Both the position numbers and the translations under genes were made by a program. From NCBI GenBank assembly GCA_964466945.1, contig CAYXPA010000002.1, positions 24,837-88,836 on the forward strand: a stretch of DNA of 64,000 bases, read 5' to 3'. Origin of the DNA: an uncultured Verrucomicrobiota bacterium (GTDB lineage: Bacteria > Verrucomicrobiota > Verrucomicrobiia > Limisphaerales > J093). Shown here one piece after another: positions 1 to 47,473 of this stretch (its first letter is position 1; every line of letters begins with the position of its first letter). The notes under the pieces were generated by a model. That model had not been told where the DNA came from. It ran no database searches and saw only the letters and a list, made by a program, of their open reading frames with translations.

Positions 1-46
1 GAGCGCTACTCAACCAGGTCACAACAACGGCTTACCATCCGTCAAT

Positions 47-1141
47 TCAGCCACCCATTCGACGAGCCAGCCAGAGACCCAGTTTGGGGCAACCCAACAG
101 CCGATCCGCCACCCATCGCCGTGCGCGACCCGGCAGGTACAGTAGCGCCGGGGGCAAGATCCTGGGGCGGGCCCCCAAGCGCAAGTTAAACGCGTATCGG
201 CTCTTCGCCAATGCTTCTTCCATCGGTTCGTGCTCCTGCCAGCGCAAGGCTAGGGAACGGTCCATGCCCACAAAATCAACCTCGTCACACTGCCAATCGG
301 CGGCCAGGAGCATGGCACGATGATTCAAAAAGGCGTTTGCGTGCAGTCCAGGGCAGGCTTCGTTCCACCCCTTTTTCCAGAATGTGCAACGACGATTGAA
401 ACGTATCAAAAGCAAGCCCGCCACCCACTGGCCTTGGTATCTTGCCAATAACAAGCGCACCTCCGGAAACCACACATCCCACAAATGCTCGACCAGCTCC
501 AACCGACTCGGATTGGGCGTCACCCCCTGTCGGTGGCAACTGCCCAACATCAACTCGAAGAAAATCGGCAATGTCTCGCGCCCGCACTCGACAACCTCCA
601 CGCCCGCTTTCTGAGCAAAACGCGAGTGTTGCTTGGCTTTACGGCTCATCCGCGCTTCGATGGCCTCTGGACCGCCGGTCACATCCGCGACCAACGTGGC
701 ATCCAATACCCCAGGTACCGGACTTTTCCCAAAACCTTGCCGCCAAAGCAACCCCGGCGCAATTTGACTCCCGTCGGGCAGCTGCAGGGTCACCGCGCGG
801 AGATGCTGCTCGCGCGCAACTCGTTGAATACTCGCAAGAGCCTTGGCAAGCTCCGCATCCGTTTCCTCGCGCAGCACCGGCCCTTTGTTGACAAATCCGA
901 CCCGACCTAATCGCGTCGGCTTAATCAGCATCAAAAAACCGCCGGCCAAATCTGCCGCTCGTGCCGGCCAGGCCTCTAATACGCCTTGCCAACCTTCGGC
1001 CGCTTTGACCTCTGCCCAGCGCCAGGACTGCTGAAACTGTCCGCGCGGATTGGCGGTCAGGAAAGCCTCCCAGCGCTCTTTGACCGCGGGTTTGGACGCT
1101 GGGTTAACCGGCAACTCGTTGGTGGACAGTTCCGTTTGCAT
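47..1141 (-). CDS. FemAB-family (GNAT-fold, BioF2-like) acyl/aminoacyl transferase
   Basis: 364-aa ORF with no competing ORF. Layout and motifs (QQSWRWAEVK, FWKKGWNE, LHANAFLNHRAM) fit the two-lobed FemAB / lipid II glycyltransferase-like family as I recall it. Same architecture as 21339-22436 and 32247-33419. Recognised by eye, not searched. Confidence 0.7.
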   Translation of the reverse strand: MQTELSTNELPVNPASKPAVKERWEAFLTANPRGQFQQSWRWAEVKAAEGWQGVLEAWPARAADLAGGFLMLIKPTRLGRVGFVNKGPVLREETDAELAKALASIQRVAREQHLRAVTLQLPDGSQIAPGLLWRQGFGKSPVPGVLDATLVADVTGGPEAIEARMSRKAKQHSRFAQKAGVEVVECGRETLPIFFELMLGSCHRQGVTPNPSRLELVEHLWDVWFPEVRLLLARYQGQWVAGLLLIRFNRRCTFWKKGWNEACPGLHANAFLNHRAMLLAADWQCDEVDFVGMDRSLALRWQEHEPMEEALAKSRYAFNLRLGARPRILPPALLYLPGRARRWVADRLLGCPKLGLWLARRMGG

Positions 1142-1161
1142 CCTTCTGGAGGAATTTTATT

Positions 1162-2073
1162 TCAGGCCTCGGTTCCCCCCTCACGCACCGCATGAGACAG
1201 TGGCTCCGCAGCCTCAGTCCCCTTGCCGACAATTCCTGTAATCTTATCCATGTACCGAGGCATCAGCAGCCGCAACCCGCTTTCGATCAAGGGATTGAGG
1301 TGGTAACGCGCGGGCAAAGACACCGCCTCACACCCGCGCTGCAAGTAGAATTCATCCACGCCGGCTTCCCGTCCCTGCTTGCGCTGCCCCGCGTACACTT
1401 GGGCCCATCCGCACGCCGCCGCATGGGTCCGGACTGCGTGTAACATCAGACTGGCCACGTGGAGTTTGAGAGCGCGTTCCCGGGCGAAAAATGTGGCATA
1501 AAACAAGGTGCTTTCGACCGGCACAGCGATGACCACCGCCTGCAACACTCCGGCTTCAATCGCGCCCCAGACCAAGACCTTGGGAATGCGTACCACCTCG
1601 GTAGCCCAAGCGGCAAACCGCTCCGGGTCTTCCCGATCGGCTCGATACCTATAGCCGGTACGTTGGCGAAACTCCAAGTACACGACATGCCCTTCGCGCG
1701 CCAGAAGCTGCGGCTCCAACATCCGCTGTACTTGGAAATTCTTCAACGCCGTGCGCACCTCCCAGCGCCGTTTTTTCTCCAAGGACTCCAACCGGTATTC
1801 ATTCGCCCGCCGAAACAGCAAGAACGTCATGCGCGAATTGGCCCGGGCCGACTCGCCAACCACATGCTGAAACCCGCCCCAGCGGCTGGCTTGGGACTGG
1901 CGAACCTGTTCCGGATTAAGCACCTGGAATGGGATCAATGGCCGGTAGAAAAACGGACGCACCTGTCGCCACCACACCCCGCCGGATTCCAGCACCCGTG
2001 CCCCCATGGCCCGCTCGTAAGCGGCAAACTCCGCCACGGTCATGGACTCAACGCCGGTCATGCCTAATGCCAA
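1162..2073 (-). CDS. GNAT/FemAB-related acyltransferase-like protein (weak assignment)
   Basis: 303-aa ORF packed in the operon, 20 nt from the next gene. The C-terminal half (VLVWGAIEAGVLQAVVIAVPVESTLFYATFFARERALKLHVASLMLH) resembles a GNAT acyl-CoA-binding lobe. Confidence 0.5.
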   Translation of the reverse strand: MALGMTGVESMTVAEFAAYERAMGARVLESGGVWWRQVRPFFYRPLIPFQVLNPEQVRQSQASRWGGFQHVVGESARANSRMTFLLFRRANEYRLESLEKKRRWEVRTALKNFQVQRMLEPQLLAREGHVVYLEFRQRTGYRYRADREDPERFAAWATEVVRIPKVLVWGAIEAGVLQAVVIAVPVESTLFYATFFARERALKLHVASLMLHAVRTHAAACGWAQVYAGQRKQGREAGVDEFYLQRGCEAVSLPARYHLNPLIESGLRLLMPRYMDKITGIVGKGTEAAEPLSHAVREGGTEA

Positions 2074-2127
2074 CTTTCCCGACCTAGTTCCGATTTAGTC
2101 CGGGGGCTTGCTGCAGACCGTTTCCAT

Positions 2128-3543
2128 TCAGTTGCCCGGGCCACTAGGCCCGAGTGTCTCGGCTGCGCGAACCGCTGCTGTATTGCTAGTCGCGACCGCG
2201 ACCTCAGAACATTCATCATGTGATTCTGGGGGCAGTGTTCCCGCATCGGAGGTCGTCTGGCCGAGCAAAGTAACAATCACTTCCTCCAAGCGAGTTCGGG
2301 CCGACATTGCTGCCGACATTAAAGGCTGTCGAACCACATCCCGCTTACGATGCAACTCCAGAACTTTTCGTAATGCCTGCTCGGTGTCCACTTCCCGGCC
2401 GTCCACCACCCAATCTCCCATGCCAACCATTTCGAAGACACCCCGAAACTTGCGGCTGTAGGCAATTCCGACAGCCGGAACCCCCTGAGACAGCGCGGCG
2501 ATGCAGGCGTGCATGCGGGATCCTACGAAAAAGTCGCAGCAGCCAATGACGCCCTTGATTTCGTGGCAGTCGTATTCGCCGGTAACGATGCGTACACGGT
2601 TGCGAACCGCCGGCGGCAGCGCGCCGCGGACTTTGCGGCACGCTGCCGGATCACTTTCGACGCTCTCCGGCGGACCGTAGGTATGGGGAATCAGCCAGAG
2701 CTCACCGGGGTGGTGCTGAAGCAATGTTTCCACGAGCCGGGGCAACATGGCACAGTAGTCGAGTTTCAGTCCGAACATGTTGTCCCGCGTGTAACCGCCG
2801 TTGTACATGAGCCCGTTGACGTTGAGCCCGATGGGTCGGGGTTCCTTGTCCGAAGCTGGATCTTGCCCCGGGGCCAGCGGCGGGTCCGTTTCCAGCCGAG
2901 CCGGTATGCGCGCTTGCAAAGCAAAGGCGACGTCCGGGCTCAACCAGACCTCGCGCGCCTTACCCACTAATCCTTGTACCACGCGCTGGCTTTCCCGGTC
3001 GCGAGCCACAATCACCGAGGACCGTCGCAGAAGGTACCCAGCCAGCCAGCGTGTCCACCCACGCTGGTACGGTCCGTACGTCTGCGGGAAATGCACCAGT
3101 CCACCTTTGACCAGCACGACCGTCCAGCTAGCCAAAAAGCCGGTCAGAAACCTTCGCCACCCGTACAGGTCGCTGAAGCTGTCTCCCCCGCGGATGTCCC
3201 CCACGAAGGTCATCTCCTCCAACGCGGCGATCCAGCGCACCGAACGGCGCAACCAGCCTCGCAGCCTTCTCCATGGCATGACCCGGTACAAAACACAGGC
3301 CAAGACAATCCCCAGCAGGTGTTCAGAGGGGCGGGCCCTCGGCGAAAGGCGGTAATTCACCACCTGCGCTCTCACTGTCTCTTCGCCGACCCGAAACGCC
3401 GCTTCGCCCGGGGTGCGATGTCCCACGAAAAGGGCCACTTTCTCCACGCCCGATTGTCGGCACAAGCCGACCAGCGAGGCGCCCAGGGCCATGACCCCTC
3501 GGTTCCCGGAGCTGACCGGTGTTCCCAGGATGCCGACCCTCAT
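2128..3543 (-). CDS. polysaccharide pyruvyl transferase family protein
   Basis: ORF 2128-3573. Start moved to ATG 3543 (MRVGILGT), which forms an ATGA overlap with the upstream stop. The C-terminal motif CDFFVGSRMHACIAALSQGVPAVGIAYSRKF is typical of CsaB/WcaK-type pyruvyl transferases. Confidence 0.8.
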   Translation of the reverse strand: MRVGILGTPVSSGNRGVMALGASLVGLCRQSGVEKVALFVGHRTPGEAAFRVGEETVRAQVVNYRLSPRARPSEHLLGIVLACVLYRVMPWRRLRGWLRRSVRWIAALEEMTFVGDIRGGDSFSDLYGWRRFLTGFLASWTVVLVKGGLVHFPQTYGPYQRGWTRWLAGYLLRRSSVIVARDRESQRVVQGLVGKAREVWLSPDVAFALQARIPARLETDPPLAPGQDPASDKEPRPIGLNVNGLMYNGGYTRDNMFGLKLDYCAMLPRLVETLLQHHPGELWLIPHTYGPPESVESDPAACRKVRGALPPAVRNRVRIVTGEYDCHEIKGVIGCCDFFVGSRMHACIAALSQGVPAVGIAYSRKFRGVFEMVGMGDWVVDGREVDTEQALRKVLELHRKRDVVRQPLMSAAMSARTRLEEVIVTLLGQTTSDAGTLPPESHDECSEVAVATSNTAAVRAAETLGPSGPGN

Positions 3544-4694
3544 ACCGGCGTGCCCCCCGGCGAAAACCACCACCGATCGAACACAGTCTGCAACAACTCC
3601 CGATGGGTTTCACACAACACCATGTTGCGCACCCCTCGCAGGCGCCGTTCTCCCACCCAGAATCGTTCGACCCAGCCCCTCCGGTTCTGTCGGGTTAGGA
3701 TGGGGCCGTGCCCCAGCACGGTGCTCAGAGCGTCGTGCCGCTGCTCCTCACAGAACCGGAGCCACTCGGCTTCCACAAAGGCCGGGTCGGACACGCAACG
3801 GTTGCGTTGCTCCATGCGCTGCCGCCAGGCGTCCGCTTCTGCGGCCGCAAGCAGCCGTGCTCCCGGCACGGGTTTGGACTGCCGAAACGGAATGCATTCC
3901 ATCTGCGCTCGTCCTCCCGGCTCCAGGTCGAGCTGAACCAGAAACCCCTCGTGGAATCCCGGCTTGTCGCGGTAGATTTCCTCGTCCATGACCAGGGCCC
4001 CTTGTCCATAAACGATGTACCCGTGTTGGTATGGTTCCCAACCGCCCAGGGCATGCGGATGCTGCACGAGAACCGCAGTGGCGCCCAACTCGATCAAAAA
4101 CCGGCAGAGTCGCTGCACCCGGGGTGTGACGGGTTGGAACTCGGCCGCCCCATGGTAAAGAACGATCCAGTGATCCCACTGGGTTGCCTGCTCCCGGAGG
4201 GTGCGCACGAGGCCGATGAGATCGAGCGGATTGGCTCCCGGCGCATCCGGCCCTGCGATGGAAAACTCGTGCTCGGCGACGGCCAGAAAGGCCACCCGCA
4301 GCCCGGCCCCGTTCCAAACGTAAGGGCGCGACGCTTCAGTCAGATTCTCTCCCGCACCCACCGTGGCGATCCCTGCTTGCCGGCACACTTCCATGGTGTA
4401 ACACAGACCGGCGGCGCCGTGATCGAGGATGTGATTGTTTGCCAATGTGAGCAGCCCAATGCCGGCCCGACGCAAAGCCTCTGCACACAAGCCCGGGGCC
4501 CCGAGGACGGGCCCCGTTTTCCGGATGGGAGACGGTCGCTCGATCAAGGGACACTCCAGGTTGACCACCACCAGGTCCGCTTCCTGGAACCGAGGTAAGA
4601 GATTTCCAAACAGGGCCTCCGCGTCGCCCCGCTCGAAGTAAGGCCGGTTGTCGCCAATAGGGCAAATATCAGCACCAATAACGATTTTGGCCAT
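3540..4694 (-). CDS. CapA/PGA_cap family metallophosphatase-like protein
   Basis: 384-aa ORF. Motifs IVIGADICP, LTLANNHILDHG, WIVLYHGAAEF and VLVQHPHALGG match the CapA (poly-gamma-glutamate capsule) family signature. Confidence 0.8.
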   Translation of the reverse strand: MAKIVIGADICPIGDNRPYFERGDAEALFGNLLPRFQEADLVVVNLECPLIERPSPIRKTGPVLGAPGLCAEALRRAGIGLLTLANNHILDHGAAGLCYTMEVCRQAGIATVGAGENLTEASRPYVWNGAGLRVAFLAVAEHEFSIAGPDAPGANPLDLIGLVRTLREQATQWDHWIVLYHGAAEFQPVTPRVQRLCRFLIELGATAVLVQHPHALGGWEPYQHGYIVYGQGALVMDEEIYRDKPGFHEGFLVQLDLEPGGRAQMECIPFRQSKPVPGARLLAAAEADAWRQRMEQRNRCVSDPAFVEAEWLRFCEEQRHDALSTVLGHGPILTRQNRRGWVERFWVGERRLRGVRNMVLCETHRELLQTVFDRWWFSPGGTPV

Positions 4695-4715
4695 GGGCCC
4701 AAATCCAACTGCGCT

Positions 4716-5402
4716 TCACTTTGCCGTTGGCGCGGAGGGCACCCCGGGGACCTGGCGCACTTCGAGGATCTCACCCAACCGGCTCGGGGACCGCTCCCAC
4801 CACCGTGACTCCAAAACCTCTGGAATTTTGTCCTTGGGAATCCGCCAACCCACTCGGCGGGCAGGGAAACCACTCACCACGGCGTAATCCGGGACATCCA
4901 TGCAGACGACCGATCCCGGACGCACCACCGCCCCGATCCCGATGCGGCGCGTAGGCGGGACCACAGTCACGTTGTGGCCTAACCAGGCTCCGTGAGCGAT
5001 CTCCAGCTCTCCAAAGCAAAGCGGCGGGCCGCTGACCTTGCCCAAGCTCGGGTTGTAAAAGAAACCGTGGGTGGAGAGCAGATCGAACGGATGATTTCGC
5101 GTAAAAGTTCGCACGGTGTCGGCCACCCAGCAATATCGGCTGATTCGCGTCCCCCGGTGCAGGACCGAAGGCTTCTGGCGCCAGGGCCAGTAATTATAGG
5201 CCCCGATGCTCACTCCGTAGTAGCGCTCGACCAATCGCCGAATCGACAGCGAATAAGCCGGGCCGCCCTCTGCCAGTACGATCCAACGGCGCAAATGAAG
5301 CCGAAGCGTCTCGCTCGGCACGCGCGCATAAATCGGCAACAGCCAGGCAGCGCACGTGCGCATCCCTTCCGCCACTTCCGGACTTCCCCCGTCGATGTTC
5401 AC
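4716..5402 (-). CDS. hexapeptide-repeat acyltransferase (XAT/CatB-Vat-like class)
   Basis: 228-aa ORF. Left-handed beta-helix repeats are present (GAWLGHNVTVVPPTRRIGIGAVVRPGSVVCMDVPDYAVVSGFPARRV). Upstream segment ISRYCWVA...NHPFDLLSTHGFFYN. 4-nt overlap with the upstream gene. Confidence 0.8.
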   Translation of the reverse strand: MNIDGGSPEVAEGMRTCAAWLLPIYARVPSETLRLHLRRWIVLAEGGPAYSLSIRRLVERYYGVSIGAYNYWPWRQKPSVLHRGTRISRYCWVADTVRTFTRNHPFDLLSTHGFFYNPSLGKVSGPPLCFGELEIAHGAWLGHNVTVVPPTRRIGIGAVVRPGSVVCMDVPDYAVVSGFPARRVGWRIPKDKIPEVLESRWWERSPSRLGEILEVRQVPGVPSAPTAK

Positions 5403-6181
5403 AAGACGCGGCTCTCCTGCTCCGGCCGCCCATCCTGCTCCAGCCGGGCATTCAATGGCCTGCCGGAGGCCACTAGCTCATCGATCGATTTCAGCCACCA
5501 CTGCTCCTGCAACAGGTGCTGAATGGTTTCCGGACGAAAGCGGTAACGCACAACCCTGGCTGGATTGCCTGTAACCACGGCGTAAGGTGGCACATCTTCA
5601 TGCACCACAGATCCGGCGCCGATCACCGCGCCATGGCCAATGCGCCGGACCGAGGGCAGGATGACCGCGTTGTGGCCGATGTAGACGTCATGACCGACGA
5701 CCAAACCAGCCCCGGCAGAGCGGGTGGGTCGGGTCTCTTTGGACCACAGATTCCAAGCCGGCCCGCCGGCTGGCAAGATCTCGACAGGTCCATCCGATGC
5801 CATAATTCGCGCCGTGCAATAAACCGAGCAGTAGCGCCCAATAACCGTCCCGGCAGCGAACTGATCCGGGTCGGTCTCGCAGGGCCCAATGGTGTACAAC
5901 CCTACCTCGACGCCATGGTAGCGGGCCAGGATTTCCCGGACACTCCACGAATACACGGGGCCTTTTTCCAGACGCAGGACGCAGCGGCGTGCCCAAGGCC
6001 GCCATCCGACAGGAAGACCGGGATAGACAACCCGTGCGATCCAGCGACCCAGGCCGGATTGGACCCCTTCAGCCGGAGAGCCTGCAGTGGCTCGGGGCGG
6101 CTGGCCCGATGCCGAAGAACCCTCCCGCGATTCCAAGTTCAAGCGGCCTTCGTCTGTCATCAAGGCGCCTCTGTTTTGCAA
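5399..6181 (-). CDS. hexapeptide-repeat acyltransferase (XAT-like paralog)
   Basis: 260-aa ORF with hexapeptide repeats (VVGHDVYIGHNAVILPSVRRIGHGAVIGAGSVVHEDVPPYAVVTGNPARVVRYRF). It shares an N-terminal block (GPVYSWSVREILARYHGVEVGLYTIGP) with 4716-5402 and 12811-13758. Confidence 0.8.
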   Translation of the reverse strand: MQNRGALMTDEGRLNLESREGSSASGQPPRATAGSPAEGVQSGLGRWIARVVYPGLPVGWRPWARRCVLRLEKGPVYSWSVREILARYHGVEVGLYTIGPCETDPDQFAAGTVIGRYCSVYCTARIMASDGPVEILPAGGPAWNLWSKETRPTRSAGAGLVVGHDVYIGHNAVILPSVRRIGHGAVIGAGSVVHEDVPPYAVVTGNPARVVRYRFRPETIQHLLQEQWWLKSIDELVASGRPLNARLEQDGRPEQESRVL

Positions 6182-6194
6182 GGGCGGCTGGGTT

Positions 6195-6515
6195 TCACAA
6201 TCCCGATGAAGGGCTTTCCCCGCACCGTTCCTGCTGTCTTCTCGTTACAAATGCGACCAGACGCTCCAAGGTTCCGAAGTTTTCCTCTCCCACGTCGCCA
6301 TCGCCGACCCGGATGCGAAACTCCTCTTCTAGAAACTGAATGAGGCGCAGCAAGCCCAGCGAGTCCAGAAGCCCGTCCACCCCCACCAAGGGCTCCTGAG
6401 GGTCCAGTCCAGGCCGTCCTCCGCTCAAGATGTCTTCCAGAAGGAATCGTTCGATTTGTGCTTTCAGTTCCATATGTCGTTTAGGTTTCGTCGCCGCACC
6501 GACCGCAGAGTTCAC
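6195..6515 (-). CDS. acyl/peptidyl carrier protein
   Basis: 106-aa ORF, or 92 aa from internal ATG 6473. GVDGLLDSLGLLRLIQFLEEEF is carrier-protein helix II with the DSL serine for phosphopantetheine. The start overlaps the stop of the adenylation gene by 4 nt. Confidence 0.8.
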   Translation of the reverse strand: MNSAVGAATKPKRHMELKAQIERFLLEDILSGGRPGLDPQEPLVGVDGLLDSLGLLRLIQFLEEEFRIRVGDGDVGEENFGTLERLVAFVTRRQQERCGESPSSGL

Positions 6516-8200
6516 TCGTCCCCGGCGGGTGGATGCCTCAAAGTTTGCGGCCCGCTCTGAGCCCCGCCCTGGAGCTGCTTCAAAAGAGCCGGACGATCCG
6601 TTTTGCCCGTGGGAGTCTTGGGCAATGCGTCCAACAAATGAAATCGCTCAGGCACCATGTAAGCCGGCAGATGTTGCTGGCAAAACCCCACCAGATCGGA
6701 CGGAGCGAGGGAATGGCCTTCCCCCAGTACCACAAAGGCGTGGATGCGATTGCCCACCAAATCATCCGGCACCGCCACGGCAGCTGCTTCCTTGATCCCC
6801 TCATGTCGATAGAGGATGCTCTCGATCTCGCCTAATTCGATTCGGTATCCCCGGCTTTTGACCATGTGATCCCGTCGCCCCAGAAACAACCAGGTCCGAC
6901 CGTCCGCTCCCAGTTTGACCTGATCCCCCGTGCGATAGACGATTTCCGGGTAGTGATGATGCAGGGGATTTTGCTGGAAGTACCGCGCCGTTTTGGCCGG
7001 GTCGCCCCAGTAGCCCTGGGCGACTGTCGGGCCCCTGACCCAAAGCTCGCCCTCCTGCCCTGGCGCGGTCACCATTTGCCCGTCCTCGGTCAGGGCAAAG
7101 ACTTGGGTGTTCTCGCAGGCCCACCCGATGGGCAACGAGGCGGGTGCATCTTCCGCCAGATCCGAGGGCTGGACCCGGTAGTAAGTGCACACGTTGGTTT
7201 CCGTCGGTCCGTACAAGTTGTAATATGCGGCTCCCGGGATGGCCTGAACGAGTCGGCGCAGGTATTTCACAGGAAACACCTCACCGGCAAAGAGGATCAG
7301 ACGCAATGCGGACAGATCGTGGGTCTCCAACCGACCGTATTGGACCAGGAGGCTGAGGATGGACGGGACCATGTACGTGACGGTGATGCGTTCGTCCTGC
7401 CATAGGTCAGCTAGCTTCACCGGCAGGGCCGCAAGTTTCTCCGGAACCAGGACCACGCTCGCGCCGGCCCGTGCCGTTGCGTAAAGGTCGAACGTGGACA
7501 GGTCAAAGTGCAGAGGGGCCATGCTCGTGGTACGGTCCTCGACGTGCAGCTGGAACGTGTGGGACGCCCAGTGAATGAAGGTCAGGCAGGTGCGGTGGGA
7601 GATCATGACCCCCTTGGGCATGCCCGTGGACCCCGACGTATACAGGATGTAGGCCAGGTCCTTTTCGCTGGCAGGGCAGTGCACCGGGGTTGCCTCCTGG
7701 GCCTCAACAGCCTCCGGTCCGCACAGCTCTCCCCCCGGCCACCGTGCGGCTTCGCCTTGCAGGGGCTGATCCAGACAGAGCGCACCGCGGATGGGTGCAC
7801 CCTCCGCGACCAGGGCCGGTAGCTGAGCTGCGTGGGTGCCGTCCACAAGGATCACCTGTACCTCGCAGTCCCTGGCGATATAGGCCGCACGTCGCACCGG
7901 TGCCTGCGGGTCCAAGGGGACATACGCAGCACCGCATTTCATGACCGCATAGACCGCCTCGACGGAATGCAAGGATTTGTGCAGCCACAGGGCGACTCGA
8001 TCGCCTTTGCGCACCCCCGCCGCTCGGAGGGCGCGGGCCAGCCGATTGCTGCGCGCCTCGAGCTGACCGTAACTCCAGGTCTGGCCAAGAAACCGGGCCG
8101 CGGGCCGGTCCGCCGCGCGCTCGGCTGAGTTACTCAGAAGATGAGGAAGCAGGTATTCCATGTTGACACTATTCGCTCCGGACACAGCCCGATCGGGCAC
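6512..8200 (-). CDS. stand-alone amino-acid adenylation enzyme (DltA/NRPS A-domain-like AMP-ligase)
   Basis: 562-aa ORF with the full ANL core motif set: LAYILYTSGSTGMPKGV, HFDLSTFDLY, NLYGPTE, YRTGD, GRRDHMVKSRGYRIELGEIE, PKTPTGKTDR. Confidence 0.9.
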   Translation of the reverse strand: MPDRAVSGANSVNMEYLLPHLLSNSAERAADRPAARFLGQTWSYGQLEARSNRLARALRAAGVRKGDRVALWLHKSLHSVEAVYAVMKCGAAYVPLDPQAPVRRAAYIARDCEVQVILVDGTHAAQLPALVAEGAPIRGALCLDQPLQGEAARWPGGELCGPEAVEAQEATPVHCPASEKDLAYILYTSGSTGMPKGVMISHRTCLTFIHWASHTFQLHVEDRTTSMAPLHFDLSTFDLYATARAGASVVLVPEKLAALPVKLADLWQDERITVTYMVPSILSLLVQYGRLETHDLSALRLILFAGEVFPVKYLRRLVQAIPGAAYYNLYGPTETNVCTYYRVQPSDLAEDAPASLPIGWACENTQVFALTEDGQMVTAPGQEGELWVRGPTVAQGYWGDPAKTARYFQQNPLHHHYPEIVYRTGDQVKLGADGRTWLFLGRRDHMVKSRGYRIELGEIESILYRHEGIKEAAAVAVPDDLVGNRIHAFVVLGEGHSLAPSDLVGFCQQHLPAYMVPERFHLLDALPKTPTGKTDRPALLKQLQGGAQSGPQTLRHPPAGDE

Positions 8201-8249
8201 CGTCGGTCTCGGGCCGGGTGCCCGCCCGAGTCCGCCGGGTCGTGTACCG

Positions 8250-9404
8250 TTACAATCCCAGTAGCGAGGCTACCAGGTTGCACTGAATCTCGTTGGTCCC
8301 CGAGTACAACCGGCTGCCGATGGCATCCCGCAGTTCCCGTTCCAGTCCCGTCTCGACCCTGTATCCCAGTCCCCCGTGGATCTGGATGGCCTCCTCACAG
8401 GATTGGACCCATGCCTCGCTGATGTGCCTCTTGGTAAGGGCAGCCTCCAGGTACGCCGGTCGCTCTTGCGCCAGCAGCCAGGCCGTTCGATACAGCAGCA
8501 GGCGGGACGTCTCCAGACGCTCCCGCATGGCCACAATGCGGCCTGCCACCTGCTGATATTTCCCGATGGGCTCCCCGTACTGGCGTCGCTGCCGGGCGTA
8601 GCGGATCGAGGCTTCCAGCAACCGCCGCTGCGCACCCACCGCACTTGCAAGGATGCAGCCCCGTTCCCAGGTCATCGAGCGCATGAACACAAAAGTCCCT
8701 GCGCCCTCGTCGCCCAGTCGGTTGGCCACGGGCACCCGACAGTCGGTGAACATCACTTCGCCCGTGGGCGTGGTCCGCAACCCGGCCTTGTCCACGGGAC
8801 GCATGGTCAGACCAGCTCGATCTGTCTCCACCAAAAACACCGTGATCCCGGCGGGGCCTTTGCTCCGGTCCACGGTGGCATAAACCGTCAGGATGTGAGC
8901 CACCGGCGCATTGCTCACGAAGTTCTTGTGTCCGTTGAGGACATAGGAATCCCCCTCCCGCCGTGCCGTGGTTTCCAAGGCGAAGGCGTCGGAGCCCGCC
9001 TTGGGCTCCGTCATGGCATTGCCTCCGATCCATGCCCCACGGGCCAGCGCCGGTAAAAACCTCAGCTTCTGCTCGTTCGTTCCCAGCGCCAGCAAGGGCG
9101 TGACCACCGTCCAGAGATGCGCATGCAACGAGAACATCAGGCCGTTGTCGCAACAGGCGTAGCCAAGCCTCTCCAACGCCCCCACCATGGTCAGCGCATC
9201 GCACTCGAGCCCGCCGAATTGCTTCGGCACCGGCAAGCCGGGCAAGCCGAACCGGCCCAAAGCCTTCCACCCCGCGTGGTTGAAGCGCCCTTCCCGGTCT
9301 GCGGCCACCAGGTCACCGGTGAGCTCCGCCTTCGCAAACGCCTCCACTTCGTCGAAAAAACGCCGCTGTGTCTCGGTCCACGAAAATTCCATGCAGCCCT
9401 CCAA
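8250..9404 (-). CDS. acyl-CoA dehydrogenase-fold flavoprotein
   Basis: 384-aa ORF. Motifs GGNAMTEPKAGSD, GHKNFVSNAP, IQIHGGLGY and a C-terminal RDAIGSRLYSGTNEIQ. First gene of the dehydrogenase/adenylation/carrier triad. Confidence 0.85.
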   Translation of the reverse strand: MEGCMEFSWTETQRRFFDEVEAFAKAELTGDLVAADREGRFNHAGWKALGRFGLPGLPVPKQFGGLECDALTMVGALERLGYACCDNGLMFSLHAHLWTVVTPLLALGTNEQKLRFLPALARGAWIGGNAMTEPKAGSDAFALETTARREGDSYVLNGHKNFVSNAPVAHILTVYATVDRSKGPAGITVFLVETDRAGLTMRPVDKAGLRTTPTGEVMFTDCRVPVANRLGDEGAGTFVFMRSMTWERGCILASAVGAQRRLLEASIRYARQRRQYGEPIGKYQQVAGRIVAMRERLETSRLLLYRTAWLLAQERPAYLEAALTKRHISEAWVQSCEEAIQIHGGLGYRVETGLERELRDAIGSRLYSGTNEIQCNLVASLLGL

Positions 9405-9452
9405 TCACCCTGCCGATGCTCCCCCGGGCTAACCCCTCTCCCCGATCGTGCC

Positions 9453-10973
9453 TCAACGATGGGGAGAAGCCGTCTGCGCCGAGACAGTCTCGGCAGTTTC
9501 ACTTCGCGTCCCCAACCAGGATCGTAAGGCTTCCCGGGGCCCGGCGCAGACCAGCGCCCGGCACAAAGTCATCGCTTCGCTCCGCAGTTCGGCTCTGCTC
9601 AGCACCACGAGCGCGCCCGATGCCAGCCCGAGCAGACATGCCAGCAGGATGGCAGGGCCTACGGACAGACCGGCTGTCCACGACCCCACCCAGCCACAGA
9701 CCGCAGTGAGGACGAGGATCCCGAGCGCCGGGCGAGCCGTCAGTGCCACGGGGACCCCGGCTCCTTGCCTCAGGCGCCATACGCAGACGCCCGTGGCCAA
9801 CAGCTCTCCGACCAGACCACACGCGGCAATCCACCATAAGGGGCGCCCCTGCGACGCCACCCAAAAAGCCGGCAGAAGAGAGCAAGCCCGCACCAGATTC
9901 GCGATCAACTGGCTCTGGGAATCGCCCTTCGCAATGTTGGCCACCGCCACCGCCATCCGCAGGGCTCGAAATGCAGCCACCGCTGCCAAACAGGCCATCA
10001 ACACGCCAGCCCCTGCATATTTCGAGCCATACACGCCGCGCATCCAAGCCTCGGCCCCCACCATGAGCAGCGTCGTCGAAATGGCCGCATACAGTGTCAT
10101 CGCACCCACGACCTGCTGATAGCGACGCACGAACAGGACCGCATCGTCCTGTACGCGCGCCACCAGTGGCAGCGTCACCGTATTGAACACCCGACCAAAC
10201 AAAAACTGCGGGGCCATTACGAGGGTGACTGCTGCCGCGTAGGGCGCCAGATCTGTCATGCTGTAGAACGTGGCCACAAGGAATTGATCTCCCTGCATGA
10301 TCCCGAACATGAGAAAACCGGTCAGCAGCAAAGGCCAACCGAATCGGAGCATGCGCCGGCCATATTCGGGATGCCACGTCCACCGGTAGGGTCGTTCGGC
10401 CAGGGCGTGCGAGAGGGCCAAGCTGGCCAACGCTTTCGTCACCAGGACGATCAGCACGGCCCTGTAGTCCTTCAACCACGTGGCCAACGGCCAGGCCGCC
10501 AGTGTGATGAAAACCTGGGGCACCGCTTCGGTCATTGCGGAGGGGCCAAACCGCAAATGCCGCTCGAATCGTTGCACATCCAGGTGCTGCAGGCCCCGGG
10601 CCAGCACCACCCCAGCCAACACCGCCAGCGCCCAGGCATGATCCCCAACCCCGAACCAGCGCGCCAACACCGGGGCACAACAGATCATGAGCAGGGCACT
10701 GCACAGCGCTGCCGCCGCCTGCAACCCGTGGCCGGTCGCCACAAACGTGGGATTATCCCCCTCCTTGTCCCGGACCAAAAACCGTCCTACCCCCAGCTTT
10801 GCAGTGAACTCCAGCAGGCTGATGACCATGCCGAAGACGGCTGCCATCCCGAACTCGGCCTTGCTCAGGAGGCGGGCCAGGATCATGTTGCGGACAAAGG
10901 AGGCTACATAGCCGATCCCCTCACCTACAGCGATCCAAGCACTCCCCTTTAGGACTTGTCTTCGCGTTGACAC
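9453..10973 (-). CDS. Wzx-like oligosaccharide flippase (Polysacc_synt family)
   Basis: 506-aa ORF that is hydrophobic throughout, with many predicted TM spans. The N-terminus VLKGSAWIAVGEGIGYVASFVRNMILARLL is typical of MOP/Wzx flippases. Confidence 0.8.
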   Translation of the reverse strand: MSTRRQVLKGSAWIAVGEGIGYVASFVRNMILARLLSKAEFGMAAVFGMVISLLEFTAKLGVGRFLVRDKEGDNPTFVATGHGLQAAAALCSALLMICCAPVLARWFGVGDHAWALAVLAGVVLARGLQHLDVQRFERHLRFGPSAMTEAVPQVFITLAAWPLATWLKDYRAVLIVLVTKALASLALSHALAERPYRWTWHPEYGRRMLRFGWPLLLTGFLMFGIMQGDQFLVATFYSMTDLAPYAAAVTLVMAPQFLFGRVFNTVTLPLVARVQDDAVLFVRRYQQVVGAMTLYAAISTTLLMVGAEAWMRGVYGSKYAGAGVLMACLAAVAAFRALRMAVAVANIAKGDSQSQLIANLVRACSLLPAFWVASQGRPLWWIAACGLVGELLATGVCVWRLRQGAGVPVALTARPALGILVLTAVCGWVGSWTAGLSVGPAILLACLLGLASGALVVLSRAELRSEAMTLCRALVCAGPREALRSWLGTRSETAETVSAQTASPHR

Positions 10974-11195
10974 GCTCCTCAGGTCATCACGATCGTATCA
11001 GTGCCGGACACCTCCTCCACCAACCAATGCTTCCTCCGTAGTCAGATGCTAAGCAGCGCAAGGTAACTAAAGGCTGTTTGTTCTTGTCCCTCGTTGAAAA
11101 CCGGTGGAGGCTGAATAACCACTCGATACCTGCTCAGGGGCAGACACGCCTTAACTCCGTTTTGAATCAACGATGAGACTCAGTCCCTCCAGAGA

Positions 11196-12294
11196 TCAGG
11201 CCCAAGCTTTGTCCTCCCCCGACCCGGCCCGGTCCACTAAGAGCACATCGGCACGCTGCCGCCGCGCAGAAATGGCAACTCGCCACATTGGAGGTGGATG
11301 CCCCACCGCCACCAACACGATGATGTTCTCGCTGGGTGGTATTCTCAGATAAGAGCGAAGCTCTAGATCTTTTTCCTTACGCTTCGACCAGTTTAGCATG
11401 CAAGTCACAAGTCCGCGCGAATGCAGAGCCCACACCAAGCTCATAGCAAACAGCGCCCCGTCGATCCATGCCTGGCACCGCTCCCCGGCAGATTGAAAGC
11501 ATGCCAGGTCTGCGGTGATGATTAGCAGCATGGGGACCTGTTCCTTGAACCCTCGAGCCCCTTCCTGAATGTCCAGAACGCCCTGGATGCGCTCGGGTTC
11601 GCGTACCATCAAGACGCGCGCCGCTTGGCGATTGCAACACGATGGAGTGTGCATGGCCAACAGAACGGCTGCTTCAATGTCGAGTATGTCCACCTGCTGG
11701 TCCGAAAACTCCCGGACGCTGTGTCGGGATGCAAAAAAGACGTGTCAGATCAATTCGGGCCTCCTCCAGTAACTGTTCCTTGCGAATTACAGAATATCCT
11801 CCCAACTCCGGACTGCAGTTTTTCGCCCGAGGTGGCCCCATGGCCTCGAGCTCTGCAATCCTAGCTGCCAAACCTGGATCTGATAGTCCGTGCTGTGCAT
11901 TGAAGTCTCTGTAAGCGCGTAGAGCATCCGCAGCAGCCTGCGTTGCTCCGTCCGGGCCGAAGCTGAAAAGATAAAGTTCCATTCTGCATAGAAGCAACTG
12001 AATCAATTCTTTCCCAAACCCCGGTCTTGGAGCTGGTAGGCTGAGCCCCTTCTCGACCCCATGTGTTGCCATCGTCACCAAGGCAGCCAGCTTTCGCCGG
12101 TTGTTGCCTGTCCAAACCGCGCTGCTATATCGCCAAACACGCACAAAATCATACCAGAAATTAGCAGCCAAGATCAACGTATCGCGCACCACCTTACCAG
12201 CTAACCATAGTCGGTTACTCCAGGCAATTCGTCGAGCCGCTTTGTAACGGACACGGCCCTTCTTCTCTTGCATAATCAGCCAACCCGTTTTCAC
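11196..12294 (-). pseudogene. nitroreductase-family gene with N-terminal extension, split by a 1-nt frameshift in a T6 (plus-strand A6) run
   Basis: ORFs 11674-12294 and 11196-11693 overlap in different frames. Removing one T from the run at 11733-11738 gives a continuous ...RIDLTRLFASRHSVREFSDQQVDILDIEAAVLLAMHTPSCCNRQ..., a classical nitroreductase N-terminus (RHSVREF). Confidence 0.7.
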
Positions 12295-12810
12295 TGGCGT
12301 CTTTGCTTCGCGAGCTGGCTCTTGAGCGCTGGATATTGCAGATTTTGGGCTTTTTGCGGCGCCTTTTTCTTGTTTGACAAGCTCTTAGTTGTGCATACAC
12401 ATGGTCGTTTTCGATAGACCTGCGCTCAAACCTTATGACGGTTCAGTATTTCACAAGAACGCAGCCAGTCGATGCCTGCATGCCCTGAACGGGTTCCTGG
12501 AAGCAGGTCTGCGGCGCATCTGCTCAGCCTGCCTTCCCAGTCATGTGCGGCTCGTGTCAGGCCCAGACCCACGTTCAATTGGCCAACGTCCCGGCCGGTG
12601 GATGGAGCAGAACTACCGGATCGCTCGGGATAGATTCCATCCGGCATCCGGCACGTTCCGGCGACGCGATCTGAATCACACAATCAAACCCTACGAGCAT
12701 CTTCGCTAGCGCTGATCTCTTCTAAGAATCCGGTTCTGCGGCTTGTAGCTGCATGCGGAAACTCAAAGCAACTTTACAGCCTGGTTTGAGTAGAGAGCAT
12801 GAGGCCCACG

Positions 12811-13758
12811 CTACGTACACCGGATTCCCGAAGTACCCGATGACCGAGCGAAGAGTGCACACAGCCTCCTAGCCCGATCCACCGTCACCGGTTGGGTGAG
12901 TAGCTCCAAGTGTGGCAACAGTTCTTCCAGCGAGCGCCGCCACCAGGCAGAAGCCCGCACCAGGGCCTCGATTTCCGGGTCGAATCTGGGCCGAATGACA
13001 CGGGCGGGATTGCCCGCGACGATCCGATAGGGTTCCACATCACGGGTTACGACGGCTCCCGCCCCGACCACCGCTCCGTCGCCGATCTGACGGCAGCCGG
13101 GCAGGATGATCACCCGGGCACCAATCCACACGTCATGGCCAATGGTGAGGGGATTGGCTTCCGGCCGTTTCACAGCATCCTCCCGCAACAAGCCCACCTC
13201 CGCGTTAAAAAAGAAGGGATGCTGGGAGGCAAAGTTCGTGGGATGATTACGGCGCAAGACGATCAGACCGTGCGCAATGCTGCAGTAGCGCCCCACGGTG
13301 GTGCCCGGAGGAAAATCGCCGGGGCGCAATCGCGGTCCGTACGTATAGGCGCCAATGCGGACACCGTAGTACTCCTGGGCGATCGCGCGCCAGGTCGGCG
13401 ATAAACGGTTTCCGCCGTCGAGGTATTCGACGAGTGAGCGCAAGATCGGTCGCAGAAAACGGCAGCGGTAAAGGCCCAAACAAAGCCCACCCCACCAAGT
13501 TAATTGGCCGCTTTCCAAACGGCGGGCACGGGCCAACAACCGGGCCAGTTGCGGAGCTGGCGCCAGCTCGGGTAAAAGGGCTTCGCTCACTCCACCGCAC
13601 GACGTTTGGTCTGCGGTTGAACGCCATTCCGTCTGCTTCATCTCGGCCAAGGTCCACTGCATCCGCGGTCTGAGTCGGCTGCTGAACGAGTCTCCTTCCC
13701 GCAAAAGACATCGGAATTTCCCGGAAAATGCGAGGTGCGTTTTTCGAAGACACCACAT
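12811..13758 (-). CDS. hexapeptide-repeat acyltransferase (XAT-like paralog)
   Basis: ORF 12811-14034. Its first 92 codons overlap the 3' end of 13772-15571, so the start was moved to ATG 13758 (alternative ATG 13662). Motifs [31 protein letters not shown] and [50 protein letters not shown]. Confidence 0.75.
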
Positions 13759-13771: not shown

Positions 13772-15571
13772 CTAGCGTCGCAGTCGGAAAAACCGGGCCA
13801 GGTGGTCTGTTTCGAGCAAGATCTCCCAGCGATTCCCCTGCAGCGTGGGCGCGTTGGTGAGAAGATCCCAAGGGCCCGGAAGACTCCCTGCGGCCTCCAA
13901 CGACCAGGACCCGGACTGCGCAGGCCAGTGCAGCAAGATCCGGCCGGCGTCTCCGCCAGCCGCAATTTCGAGTCGCACAGGCGGCAGGGCCGCCGGGCCG
14001 TACGCGCCGGGGGTCGCCCAGCCCGCGCCCGCACCGATCAACCGGGAATCCGGTCGCAACTGCAGACCGTCGTCTTCGGTGAAGGGCCAACCGTCCGGGC
14101 CCAAGGGATCGTTAATGTTCAGGAAGCCCGGATCGCCTCCGTTCAACGCGGGCGATTCCGGCCAAGACGTCTTCGGCGCGAAGTCGGGGGGCCCTCCGGC
14201 CACAAAATTGCCCTCCACCAGCGCTGAGTCTATCGGGCCGGTGAAGCGGTACCAGCCCACCTGGTCTGGCCGCACCTGACCAGTGGCCTGGCCACAGTCC
14301 ACGAAAACGTTGTTCCGCACGATACAGTTCGTTGCGTAGTTGTCCGAGTTGATAATCAGGGGATGTCGTTCCACCTGTACTGCAACATTCCCCTGTTTGG
14401 CGACGCGGAGGAACGTATTGTGCTCGACGACGCAATTGGGCATGACCAGCCCGAGCCATCCCACATCCACAAACACATTGTGGCGGATGTAGAGCGGTCT
14501 GCTGACTGTGGCGTTCCGTTTCTGGGCGTTGATCACGCCGATCATATTCACCACCATGTTGTGGGTGAAATGGATGTTCTCGTATCGCACCGGCCAGTTG
14601 TCGAACACATCGGGCGAAGGCTCATAGACACCCCAGCCGAGGTTGATGAAGAGATTGCTTCGTACGACATGATTGGTGCCGCTCCAGAAGAGCAGATCCC
14701 AGCCGTTGTTGCGATCGAACACGTTGCATTCGAGGAGATGACTCAAACCCTGGATGAAGACATATCGATAGGACAGGTCGCTGAACCGATTGCTTCGGAT
14801 GAGGCAGCCCTGGGTCCCCGAGCCCAACAGAAGCCCGTAATTCGCGGATCCGGTAATGTAGGCCGGCTTCGGACCGTCGTCCACCACGTTCGTCACAACG
14901 ATGGTAAGCGCATGTTCTTCCACGCTGGCGATGACATACGAGAGCCGGTTACTTAGCGCGATGTTGGTCCCGCGCCAGACGGAAATCGTCTGCCCCACCT
15001 GAAAACCCGCCTCCAGAAAGTTGCCGGCTGTTGACTCGATGCGGTTCGGTGATCGAAATATGATGTCGTTCTGTTTGATGGCCATGCCGTCTCGAATCAC
15101 GCAGGAAGTCAGTTCAAAATACGAGCCGCCATCGTTCACACGAACATACGCCTCATGGTTGGAAGGAGCCGAGTGTCCCGTAATGTCGAAACCCCGAACG
15201 GAAACATAGGCATGGTTGATGACCCAGCCGCGCATCACGACCAGGCCAACGGCTTCGAAGACGATGCGGTTCTGTTCGCTCGTTCCTCCGCGGACCGTGA
15301 TGATACGCTCGGGATAGGTGCCGGTTCTGACACGAATCACATCCCCCGGCTGCGCCCTGTTGGCACCTTGCTGGATGGTGCGCCACGGTTGGTCGGATGT
15401 CCCGGGGCCGGAGTCATCTCCGTCCGGGGCGACCCAGTACTCGGCCCCCATTGCCCGAGCACACAACCATAGGCTCAGGCAAAGGCCGATCCGTATTGTC
15501 CTGAGACCGAGGGCGGGTCTGGCCAAGGGCCAGGTGGCGGCCCCGAACTGTCTAAACCGCTCAGAAATCAT
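13772..15571 (-). CDS. secreted right-handed parallel beta-helix (pectate-lyase-fold) protein
   Basis: 599-aa ORF with a signal-like N-terminus ([15 protein letters not shown]). An N-cap follows ([44 protein letters not shown]), then repeated NxxF/V turns (RSNLFIN, HNMVVN, HNVFVD, HNTFL, NNVFVD). An extra C-terminal domain of about 70 aa ends in FFRLRR. Confidence 0.7.
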
Positions 15572-21338: not shown

Positions 21339-22436
21339 TCAGGGACGCGCGCGGACTCGCCAGCGCCGCCACAGTCGCTGGAATCTTTCCGCCCAGTGCA
21401 GGAGTTTCCGGCGGCTGGCCGAAGGGGCCCGCTCAAACCGGCCAAGCTGCACGACTTCCTCCCCGCCCATCCCTGACTTGAAATGGTAAACACCAGGGTT
21501 GGTCGCCGGATTAATACCGCCGAGGTCGTAGAACTGCCAACCGGCTGACTTCAAATTATCCATCATTTGCCACTGCAACAGATAGGACGCCTTGCTTTTG
21601 AGCCCCTCTTCACCGGTCGCCCCGAGCAAGTAAATACCCGTCTCGCCCAGCGCCGTTGCCACCAATCCAGCGTGATACCGACCCGACCCGGCCGCCAGTG
21701 CCACCCTCAACTGCTCCCCGGGCGCCAGTCGCTCCTGCATCCGCTCGAAGTCGGCCACATCCACGGTGGTCTCGAACCGTTTGCGGGCCATCATCTCGTC
21801 GTAAAGCGCGCGGAACTCCCGGAAAAGCTGCCTGTCATTGCCTTCGCGGATCTCCAATCCGCTCCGGATCGCCGCGTTTAACTGATTCCTCCACTTCCCG
21901 TCGAGCCGCTTGCGGATGGTCTCAAGGGGCGGGGTCAAATCCACACGAAAGGTCCGGTAGGCAGGGCCGACTTCGTCCCGCTCGAATCCCAGTGCTTGCA
22001 AAGTTTGCAATGCGATTGTGGCCTCGGAATCCTGCCGAAACAAGTTGGGCACAACCCGCAGCACCCACCCCCGACACTGCACGAACTCCTCGCCCAGCGC
22101 CGCCAGGGCGCGGCGAAAGGCTGCCGCATCCCATGCGGCGCCACGGCGTCGTGCGCACGGTCCCCAGCGCACGTAGGCCACGCCGAACCAACGGCCCAGT
22201 CGGATCTGACGCACCTGAGCCAACGCCCGAACATGCTCCTGCTGTCGGACGACCAGGTGCGTGAGCGAGCCCTCTCCCCAGGATACGCTTCCGTAGGCGT
22301 GTGTCTGGTAGAAGTTGGCGTCCGCGAATTCGGCCAGCAGTGCGCTCCATTTCCCTGAACCGAGCGGCTCCAAGCTGGTCTGCCAGAGTTCGCCCGGCGG
22401 CGGTTCCGGCGTCTGCGCCAGGGCACGATTCATCAT
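21339..22436 (-). CDS. FemAB-family (GNAT-fold) acyl/aminoacyl transferase
   Basis: ORF 21339-22487. The ATG at 22436 forms an ATGA overlap with the upstream stop. Motifs FYQTHAYGSVSW, RKRLDGKWRNQLNAAIRSGLEI, GIYLLGATGEEGLKSKASYLLQWQMM, GVYHFKSGMGG. Confidence 0.75.
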   Translation of the reverse strand: MMNRALAQTPEPPPGELWQTSLEPLGSGKWSALLAEFADANFYQTHAYGSVSWGEGSLTHLVVRQQEHVRALAQVRQIRLGRWFGVAYVRWGPCARRRGAAWDAAAFRRALAALGEEFVQCRGWVLRVVPNLFRQDSEATIALQTLQALGFERDEVGPAYRTFRVDLTPPLETIRKRLDGKWRNQLNAAIRSGLEIREGNDRQLFREFRALYDEMMARKRFETTVDVADFERMQERLAPGEQLRVALAAGSGRYHAGLVATALGETGIYLLGATGEEGLKSKASYLLQWQMMDNLKSAGWQFYDLGGINPATNPGVYHFKSGMGGEEVVQLGRFERAPSASRRKLLHWAERFQRLWRRWRVRARP

Positions 22437-47471: not shown

Positions 47472-47473
47472 CC

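Follow-up and report, generated by a model that had tools for sequence, protein, structure and literature searches.

Gene organization of the locus

The stretch of DNA analyzed here, referred to as the window, comprises 64,000 nucleotides of contig CAYXPA010000002.1 (positions 24,837 to 88,836; GenBank assembly GCA_964466945.1) from an uncultured Verrucomicrobiota bacterium. On its minus strand lie three co-directional open reading frames (ORFs), which encode a flavoprotein with the acyl-CoA dehydrogenase (ACAD) fold, a stand-alone adenylation (A) enzyme, and a small carrier protein (CP), and which are together called the triad (Table 1). An earlier note on this DNA had placed the three genes at these positions and quoted the motifs HFDLSTFDLY, MTWER, and YSGT as well as a DSL serine from their products; the ORFs and all of the motifs were found again in the translations. 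The family scans, in which 29 ORFs of the locus were compared with Pfam and 13 of the 29 also with NCBIfam, likewise bore out its description of the triad as lying between a Wzx-type flippase upstream and two XAT-class hexapeptide transferases downstream, here designated XAT1 and XAT2. Around the triad, Wzx, Wzy-like, GT2, GT4, Wzz/kinase-like, deacetylase, and DegT genes extend in the same orientation over a long distance, and the gaps between the genes of this glycan locus are short.

Since the orthologues measured 380 aa (ACAD), 539–544 aa (A enzyme), and 85–88 aa (CP), translation of all three genes probably starts later than the maximal ORFs would indicate. The earlier note had also taken the CP gene to be translationally coupled to the ligase gene. 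A 4-nt GTG/TGA overlap was indeed present, but the coupling is uncertain, because the orthologue lengths favor the later CP start given in Table 1.

Table 1. Genes of the conserved block and the adjoining flippase gene, in the order of transcription
Feature	Position	Strand	Evidence and remarks
Wzx/MOP-family flippase	9453-10973	-	Pfam Polysacc_synt_3 149 bits, Polysacc_synt 81 bits; directly upstream of the triad
ACAD-fold flavoprotein, predicted prolyl-carrier-protein dehydrogenase	8250-9404 (probable ATG 9392, 380 aa)	-	NCBIfam, PDB, active-site alignment
Stand-alone A enzyme, predicted to be L-proline-specific	6512-8200 (probable ATG 8161)	-	TIGR01733, PltF match, specificity code
CP with DSL serine	6195-6515 (probable ATG 6473, ~92 aa)	-	PDB matches; weak Pfam PP-binding match
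XAT1, XAT-class hexapeptide transferase paralogue without the catalytic His, IGPCE motif	5399-6181	-	NCBIfam Vat/CatB-type
XAT2, XAT-class hexapeptide transferase with the catalytic His	4716-5402	-	PDB matches CatB, VatD
CapA/PGA_cap-family protein	3540-4694	-	Pfam PGA_cap 151 bits
Polysaccharide pyruvyl transferase, last gene of the conserved block	2128-3573 (probable ATG 3543)	-	Pfam PS_pyruv_trans 82 bits

A predicted proline-loading and proline-oxidizing triad

The A enzyme contained the Pfam domains AMP-binding and AMP-binding_C and passed the NCBIfam model for amino-acid adenylation domains, TIGR01733, with 383 bits against a cut-off of 317. Its translation carried core motifs of the A1–A10 type (HFDLSTFDLY, LAYILYTSGSTGMPKG, NLYGPTE, YRTGDQ, GRRDHMVKSRGYRIELGEIE, and PTGKTDR), and the residue equivalent to Asp235 was present. 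The top single-domain match in the Protein Data Bank (PDB) was PltF (6o6e, 328 bits), with PigI as the next stand-alone relative, and over the 170-residue core that holds the specificity residues PltF scored 125 bits, PigI 89 bits, and DltA 63 bits. The specificity code was read at positions set relative to the FDxS, AG, and YGPTE motifs, following what we take to be the GrsA numbering. It reads DLFYLALVCK in the window, DLLYLALVC in PltF, and DLFYIAWVC in PigI, the last two as the nine positions visible in the HMMER alignments; the window code differs from that of PltF at one position, where it has the residue of PigI. The complete code DLFYLALVCK was identical in 32 of the 61 A enzymes that neighbor this ACAD family, and the PltF code was found in 17. 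This is the proline code of the pyrrole pathways and not one for a fatty or aryl acid, which was the check that the earlier note had proposed for its reading.

The CP translation contained the phosphopantetheine-attachment serine motif as LLDSLGLL. While its Pfam PP-binding match was weak (17.6 bits, under the cut-off), its best PDB matches were PigG (5jdx and 7thn_E; E 6e-8), the carrier domain of Bmp1 (6cxt_A), and PltL, with DltC scoring weaker (E 8e-5).

For the flavoprotein, Pfam detected three ACAD domains. The highest NCBIfam scores were obtained with the models of PigA (394 bits) and RedW (L-prolyl-PCP dehydrogenase, PCP being the peptidyl carrier protein; 372 bits), followed by acryloyl-CoA reductase (265 bits); the PigA and RedW scores were about 100 bits or more above those of any acyl-CoA dehydrogenase model, none of which exceeded 265 bits. 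The PDB matches gave the same picture, with AnaB (4irn) at 426 bits, Bmp3 (6cxt_B) at 278 bits, PigA (5zw0) at 272 bits, and the best ordinary ACAD at 250 bits, the identity being about 50% to AnaB and 40%–42% to PigA and Bmp3. The motifs MTWERG and LYSGT of the translation mark the active site. In the alignment, the window ACAD has YSGT at the position of YEGT in an ordinary ACAD (4u83), which in turn has Gly at the position of the Glu in the WER of the window protein. The same Ser/Glu arrangement is common to PigA, Bmp3, and AnaB, and PDB entry 6af6 is PigA with that Glu replaced by Ala. The Glu of WER is the catalytic base of AnaB and Bmp3 according to the chalkophomycin paper, in which the logic of the triad is also restated (PMC10849742). 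The active-site reading of the earlier note, with YSGT in place of YEGT and a Glu retained in MTWER, agrees with this alignment, and the family placement that it had left to a comparison of PltE-type and β-oxidation enzymes fell on the side of the prolyl-CP dehydrogenases.

A fatty-acid or aryl-acid ligase acting together with a β-oxidation-type acyl-CoA dehydrogenase, which would yield a dehydro-acyl substituent, is the least probable of the explanations that we weighed. Generic ligase and ACAD models do score well, such as the long-chain fatty-acid-CoA ligase model with 325 bits and the exosortase-A-associated acyl-CoA ligase model TIGR03098 with 344 bits (cut-off 592), but all of these scores remained under the cut-offs. 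Against this explanation stand the pass on the amino-acid adenylation model, the Asp235 equivalent, and the proline code of the A enzyme, as well as an ACAD without the Glu of YEGT, whose active-site signature, top models, and top structures are all those of prolyl-CP dehydrogenases.

A Dlt-like system, in which D-alanine or another amino acid would be loaded on the CP and transferred unoxidized, with the ACAD being unrelated, had been kept as a lesser alternative in the earlier note, and we also regard it as very improbable. DltA and DltC are detectable relatives, and the FDLS motif occurs in DltA too. However, the scores on the DltA models (264 bits for TIGR01734, cut-off 560; 280 bits for NF003417, cut-off 476) do not make the A enzyme a DltA equivalog, PltF scored about twice as high as DltA on the specificity core, the code is that of proline, and the family scans of the locus genes revealed no DltB or DltD homologue, that is, no MBOAT or DltD-type match. 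The gene neighborhoods also argue against an unrelated ACAD. A pattern scan for signature peptides, with one genome per species, gave at least 590 loci, and 85 loci were analyzed, consisting of the best 80 from the scan and nine found by protein look-up, minus four duplicates. The ACAD was clustered in 84 of the 85, an A enzyme lay beside it in 68, and a homologous CP ORF was present in 56.

Since the ACAD, the A enzyme, and the CP each independently match the same known system, we read them as a proline-loading, proline-oxidizing triad. At the level of sequence, all three proteins carry the marks of a thiotemplated proline-oxidation system, and the parallel to PltF/PltL/PltE-type systems drawn in the earlier note is supported by the specificity code, the HMM scores, and the structure matches alike.

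The XAT pair downstream of the triad

XAT1, XAT2, and a third XAT-class protein (XAT3, 12811-13500), which is encoded in the locus away from the triad, had Vat, CatB, and TIGR03308 as their top models, all under the equivalog cut-offs; for XAT1, the NCBIfam matches of the Vat/CatB type reached 82–98 bits. The top PDB matches of XAT2 were CatB and VatD, and the His of its RNHP motif aligned with the His of VatD ANH and CatB QGH. XAT3 also keeps the His that aligns with VatD ANH. This His, at the position of VatD His82, is presumably the catalytic residue of the class.

The XAT1 orthologues (L001, L002, L005, L011, L012, and L090–L101) have Asp-Gly, Asp-Tyr, or similar residues at the His position, and XAT1 and its orthologues share a conserved IGPCE, with its Cys, and a conserved GHN. 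Relatives were counted among the best-scoring 120 cluster representatives of 538: the His was missing from 88, the Cys was present in 102, and both features were combined in 85. XAT2 follows XAT1 in every cassette that has the pair, and where a cassette variant has just one XAT (Wzx-XAT-ACAD-A), the catalytic His is retained in it. XAT2 is therefore a candidate for the catalytic acyltransferase subunit. XAT1, having lost the His and gained a conserved Cys, may be a specialized partner that docks the CP or holds the acyl group on its Cys.

Conservation of the cassette in Verrucomicrobia

The ACAD was most similar to proteins of Limisphaera (Verrucomicrobiota), namely a metagenomic homologue with 96% identity and that of Limisphaera sp. 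VF-2 with 84%. About 16 verrucomicrobial genomes and contigs contained the block ACAD-A-CP-XAT1-XAT2 close to Wzx, the most divergent at an ACAD identity of 56%–60%. In VF-2 and two other Limisphaera/Verrucomicrobiales metagenome-assembled genomes (MAGs), the order ACAD-A-CP-XAT-XAT-PGA_cap-pyruvyl transferase is kept, and the same seven genes follow one another in a Verrucomicrobiales MAG at 60% ACAD identity; Wzx stands before or inside the block in VF-2 and the other MAGs. In L001, L002, L005, L011, L012, L090, L091, L097, L100, and L104, no more than about 3 kb separates the triad from a Wzx homologue. In the reverse search, which started from XAT1 in metagenomes at 47% identity or more, 12 contigs extended far enough upstream, and in 11 of them the CP and A genes came immediately before XAT1. 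Because the block recurs in so many genomes and contigs, its arrangement is not due to chance, and the co-occurrence with glycan genes in relatives, which the earlier note had suggested checking, was confirmed, with links to Wzx, XAT, and glycan genes down to the lowest ACAD identities in the group.

The outer genes of the block are less constant. The PGA_cap gene was present in L001, L002, L005, L011, L012, L090, L091, and L110, and the pyruvyl transferase gene was syntenic in the first seven of these; both were missing from the available sequence of L097 and L100. Since neither gene is universal, the core was taken to be ACAD, A, CP, XAT1, and XAT2, with Wzx adjoining.

The ACADs of the cassette form one clade in a neighbor-joining tree (73% bootstrap). 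In one cassette, from an uncultured verrucomicrobium (L012, 10001-17049), genes for EtfB, EtfA, and a membrane Fe-S/CCG oxidoreductase (EtfD) are inserted between the ACAD and the A gene, which argues that the flavoprotein acts as a dehydrogenase feeding an electron transfer flavoprotein (ETF).

Other settings of the triad

Outside the verrucomicrobial cassette, the partners of the triad vary by lineage, for instance with in-line flavin halogenases, as in cyanobacteria. The triad is therefore a mobile module, of which the placement with Wzx/Wzy genes and an XAT pair is one use. As the triads of distant phyla stand in other settings, the glycan link belongs to the cassette and not to the whole family.

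In L054 (8042-19155) and related Acidobacteriaceae, the genes run O-methyltransferase, EpsC/CysE-like hexapeptide transferase, ACAD, A, CP, A-PCP, and P450-A-PCP-TE (TE, thioesterase), with an UpxY-family antiterminator and a tyrosine-kinase-like protein upstream. An assignment of this group to exopolysaccharide loci, to which its hexapeptide transferase, tyrosine-kinase-like, and UpxY-like neighbors had pointed, was considered and rejected on the Pfam matches of its downstream genes, namely A-PCP, P450-A-PCP-TE, and O-methyltransferase. Since the group is of the nonribosomal peptide synthetase (NRPS)-like kind, it was dropped as support for the glycan link, and it looks like an uncharacterized pathway to a pyrrole-containing natural product.

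In 20 of the 85 loci, the triad adjoins a fusion of a membrane domain of about 500 aa with an SGNH/GDSL domain, about 730–940 aa in total (L006–L009, L013, L023, L024, L026, L036, L039, L040, L042, L043, L052, L071, L072, L076, L077, L082, and L084). This protein has the conserved motif GFNLPETHHxYxLxSSFTDFWRRINIYWKDF, which by eye resembles the MBOAT block of AlgI/DltB, a resemblance unsupported by any search. A kinship of the membrane domain with MBOAT/DltB proteins was not borne out, as eight N-terminal domains gave no Pfam match at E values up to 10 and there was no PDB match either.

In three loci (L049, L074, and L087), ACADs of this family occur with an A enzyme that has another code, DLFNHS[IV]SSK. 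In L049 and L087, and not in L074, homologues of XAT, Wzx, Wzy, glycosyltransferase, or pyruvyl transferase genes surround this A enzyme. These loci may represent another glycan-linked system of aminoacyl oxidation, acting on a different substrate, and L049 and L087 hint at a wider family of glycan acylations with oxidized aminoacyl groups.

This variety bears on a further explanation, according to which the triad supplies a CP-bound pyrrolyl or dehydroprolyl unit to a small molecule or lipid completed by genes elsewhere, while the XATs are ordinary acetyl-CoA-dependent O- or N-acetyltransferases for sugars that happen to share the operon. In its favor, the genes after the triad encode NRPS-like A-PCP and P450-A-PCP-TE proteins, flavin halogenases, or the membrane-SGNH protein in other phyla. 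XAT1 relatives are labeled as CatB-related or virginiamycin acetyltransferases by the annotation pipelines, and the His-keeping XAT3 is encoded apart from the triad. On the other side, no condensation, ketosynthase, thioesterase, or halogenase domain was detected in the Pfam and NCBIfam scans of the locus genes, the XAT1 orthologues are nearly always found beside CP and A genes, the five-gene block moves as a unit within Wzx/Wzy loci across Verrucomicrobia, and XAT1 lacks the residue that acetyl-CoA-dependent XATs use for catalysis. We consequently judge a small-molecule or lipid product to be quite improbable, more so than the two-electron outcome discussed below.

Proposed function and product

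The reading that we favor, and consider fairly probable, is that the five genes from the ACAD to XAT2 form a module for attaching a heterocyclic acyl group made from proline to the repeat unit of a surface polysaccharide of the Wzx/Wzy type. Judging by its specificity code and homology, the A enzyme would activate L-proline with ATP and load it onto the phosphopantetheine arm of the CP. The flavoprotein would then oxidize the prolyl-S-CP, with the Glu of MTWERG as the predicted catalytic base. The synteny suggests that, on the cytoplasmic side, the two XATs take the acyl group over from the CP and attach it to a sugar hydroxyl or amino group, the acceptor being a nucleotide sugar or a lipid-linked repeat unit. 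Wzx would flip the decorated unit, and the Wzy-like, glycosyltransferase, and chain-length genes of the locus would build the polymer. Such a system would need a phosphopantetheinyl transferase and an electron acceptor for the flavoprotein, either ETF or O2. In this scheme, the predicted loading and oxidation steps draw on strong homology, and the transfer and flipping steps on conserved synteny.

Several observations weigh against this scheme. The ACAD remained under the equivalog cut-offs of the PigA and RedW models (394 against 500 bits and 372 against 650 bits; NF053553 and NF045652), and is therefore a relative within the family and not a PigA or RedW orthologue. In the neighbor-joining tree, the sister of the cassette clade is a Chthoniobacterales group with the gene order ACAD-EtfB-EtfA-EtfD and no A or CP gene within 10 kb, a relation that has only 42% bootstrap; this subfamily of ACADs is thus not always coupled to a CP. 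No ETF homologue was found in the 64-kb window. XAT1 has SDGP in place of the NHP of XAT2 and XAT3 and hence lacks the catalytic His of its class. The characterized XAT-class enzymes use, to our knowledge, acyl-CoA donors and not carrier proteins, and no CP-XAT fusion was seen among the best 120 of the 538 XAT1 relatives. Since the triad feeds NRPS-like or halogenase pathways elsewhere, its presence alone is also compatible with a small-molecule product. Finally, the top structural match of the window ACAD is AnaB, the sole enzyme of the family known to stop after two electrons.

This last point concerns the identity of the product. The same module with the same destination could employ a flavoprotein that stops at two electrons as AnaB does, so that a dehydroprolyl (1-pyrroline-5-carboxyl) group, a reactive cyclic imine, would be placed on the glycan. 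AnaB is by far the best structural match in both bit score and identity, and the scanned locus genes contain no halogenase or other pyrrole-tailoring gene. However, all other characterized members of the family perform the four-electron oxidation to pyrrole (PMC10849742), as is also generally known. AnaB itself grouped with cyanobacterial sequences at 99% bootstrap, outside the clade of the window ACAD, and two of its three nearest relatives have flavin halogenase genes in line with the triad. Closeness to AnaB was therefore rejected as a predictor of the two-electron outcome. We found no sequence rule for two- versus four-electron oxidation, and the tree does not separate the two. Because AnaB is the only exception among the characterized enzymes and its relatives are linked to halogenases, a four-electron oxidation to pyrrolyl-2-carboxyl-S-CP is preferred as the most likely course, with the two-electron stop at the dehydroprolyl stage as the main alternative, which we nevertheless consider unlikely.

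A wider proposal, held more tentatively than the function of the module itself, is that several phyla decorate their surface glycans with pyrrole-2-carboxyl or dehydroprolyl groups by a CP route derived from antibiotic pathways, and that Verrucomicrobia do so via the XAT pair, in which the subunit with the His-to-Cys change would take the acyl group from the CP.

Other features of the glycan locus

The G+C content was 54%–65% over the triad and the surrounding glycan genes (1-22000) and 67%–74% in the last 20 kb of the window (44000-64000); the glycan locus may be horizontally acquired or compositionally distinct. A consensus scan of positions 1-13000 for promoters and terminators gave sites no commoner than in shuffled sequence, none of them informative. 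The top NCBIfam match of the CapA/PGA_cap-family protein was the MslH epimerase, with 44 bits and far under the cut-off.

Between the XAT3 and Wzx genes, a nitroreductase-family gene (11196-12294, minus strand) is apparently split into the overlapping ORFs 11674-12294 and 11196-11693. As no homologue occurs in any related locus, it looks like a lineage-specific insertion that is possibly frameshifted.

Three further genes on the minus strand lie together at 33433-36334 and encode a DegT aminotransferase, a NeuD-like hexapeptide transferase, and a GFO/IDH/MocA oxidoreductase, a trio that we take to resemble the WbpB/E/D type. Two polysaccharide deacetylase genes are also present on this strand (22433-23692 and 26158-27147). 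On the basis of the trio and the two deacetylases, the polymer probably contains amino sugars, possibly with free amines able to accept an acyl group.

Four paralogues of the FemAB/Acetyltransf_6 type (47-1141, 15561-16817, 21339-22487, and 32247-33419, all on the minus strand) had the XrtA/PEP-CTERM-associated FemAB family as their top NCBIfam match, under the cut-off, and could add amino acids. Two large right-handed β-helix proteins with hydrophobic N-termini are encoded at 13772-15571 and 17088-18548 (minus strand), and homologues of them recur in related loci. The former gave weak Pel9A-like and DUF1565 matches, the latter no Pfam match, and both may be enzymes that modify or degrade the polymer.

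Implications

If the proposed function is correct, a class of non-sugar substituent would be added to those of exopolysaccharides, either a reactive cyclic imine or an aromatic pyrrole attached as an ester or amide. Its presence would alter the charge, hydrophobicity, UV absorbance, and antigenicity of the polymer, as well as its recognition by phages or enzymes. Thiotemplated amino-acid tailoring, which usually belongs to secondary metabolism, would here be wired into Wzx/Wzy glycan assembly, and a large XAT subfamily now annotated as antibiotic acetyltransferases would gain a function. Programs for genome mining that respond to triads of this kind would wrongly report these glycan loci as clusters for natural products. 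A few small soluble proteins suffice for a direct test of the hypothesis, and the genus Limisphaera is cultivable. In the literature searched, with subscription journals mostly outside it, there was no report of a pyrrolyl or prolyl-derived polysaccharide substituent or of this gene combination.

Comparison with known systems

The hexapeptide transferases LpxA and LpxD, which have left-handed β-helix repeats, acylate a sugar nucleotide from acyl-acyl carrier protein (ACP). They belong to another subfamily than the XAT-class enzymes of the window, whose best matches are CatB and Vat, and the likeness is one of function only. The tetronate genes of Vibrio cholerae O1 include an ACP, an AMP-ligase-like protein, redox enzymes, and a protein resembling hexapeptide acetyltransferases. 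These genes, which were compared by their description, differ from those of the window in the acyl group and the redox enzymes and are likewise a functional analogy only. They are located in the O-antigen locus as VC0248–VC0252 (wbeK-O) and supply the tetronate N-acyl decoration of the sugar backbone (PMC3441752).

The logic of the DltABCD system, in which a stand-alone A enzyme charges a small CP with an amino acid in order to acylate a cell-surface polymer, is that of the proposed module as well. In contrast to DltABCD, the code of the window enzyme is that of proline and not of D-alanine, an oxidizing flavoprotein is added, and homologues of the MBOAT protein DltB and of DltD did not turn up in the family scans. 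Moreover, the transfer predicted for the window would be cytoplasmic, carried out by soluble hexapeptide transferases before flipping by Wzx.

In the AnaC/AnaD/AnaB system for anatoxin-a, AnaB and the window ACAD share the motifs MxWERG and YSGTxEIQ. According to the literature, the prolyl-ACP oxidase AnaB delivers to a polyketide synthase and goes no further than dehydroproline; no polyketide synthase was found in the window.

The same three parts make up PltF/PltL/PltE (pyoluteorin), PigI/PigG/PigA and RedM/RedO/RedW (prodiginines), Bmp4/Bmp1/Bmp3 (bromopyrroles), and CloN4/CloN5/CloN3 (clorobiocin). Like these pyrrole starter modules, the window has an A enzyme with a proline code, a small stand-alone CP, and an ACAD with a shifted catalytic Glu. 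In clorobiocin, the pyrrolyl group is finally esterified to a sugar. A transfer protein of the CloN1/N2/N7 type was not among the matches in the general family scans, which did not include a sequence search aimed at CloN1/N2/N7. Unlike the starter modules, the window has no polyketide or NRPS enzyme or halogenase nearby among the 29 ORFs scanned, and its triad is placed inside a Wzx/Wzy polysaccharide locus, followed by two XAT-class transferases. While triads of this kind are known, the gene content suggests that what is new here is a thiotemplated proline-oxidation module in exopolysaccharide biosynthesis, coupled to an unusual XAT pair.

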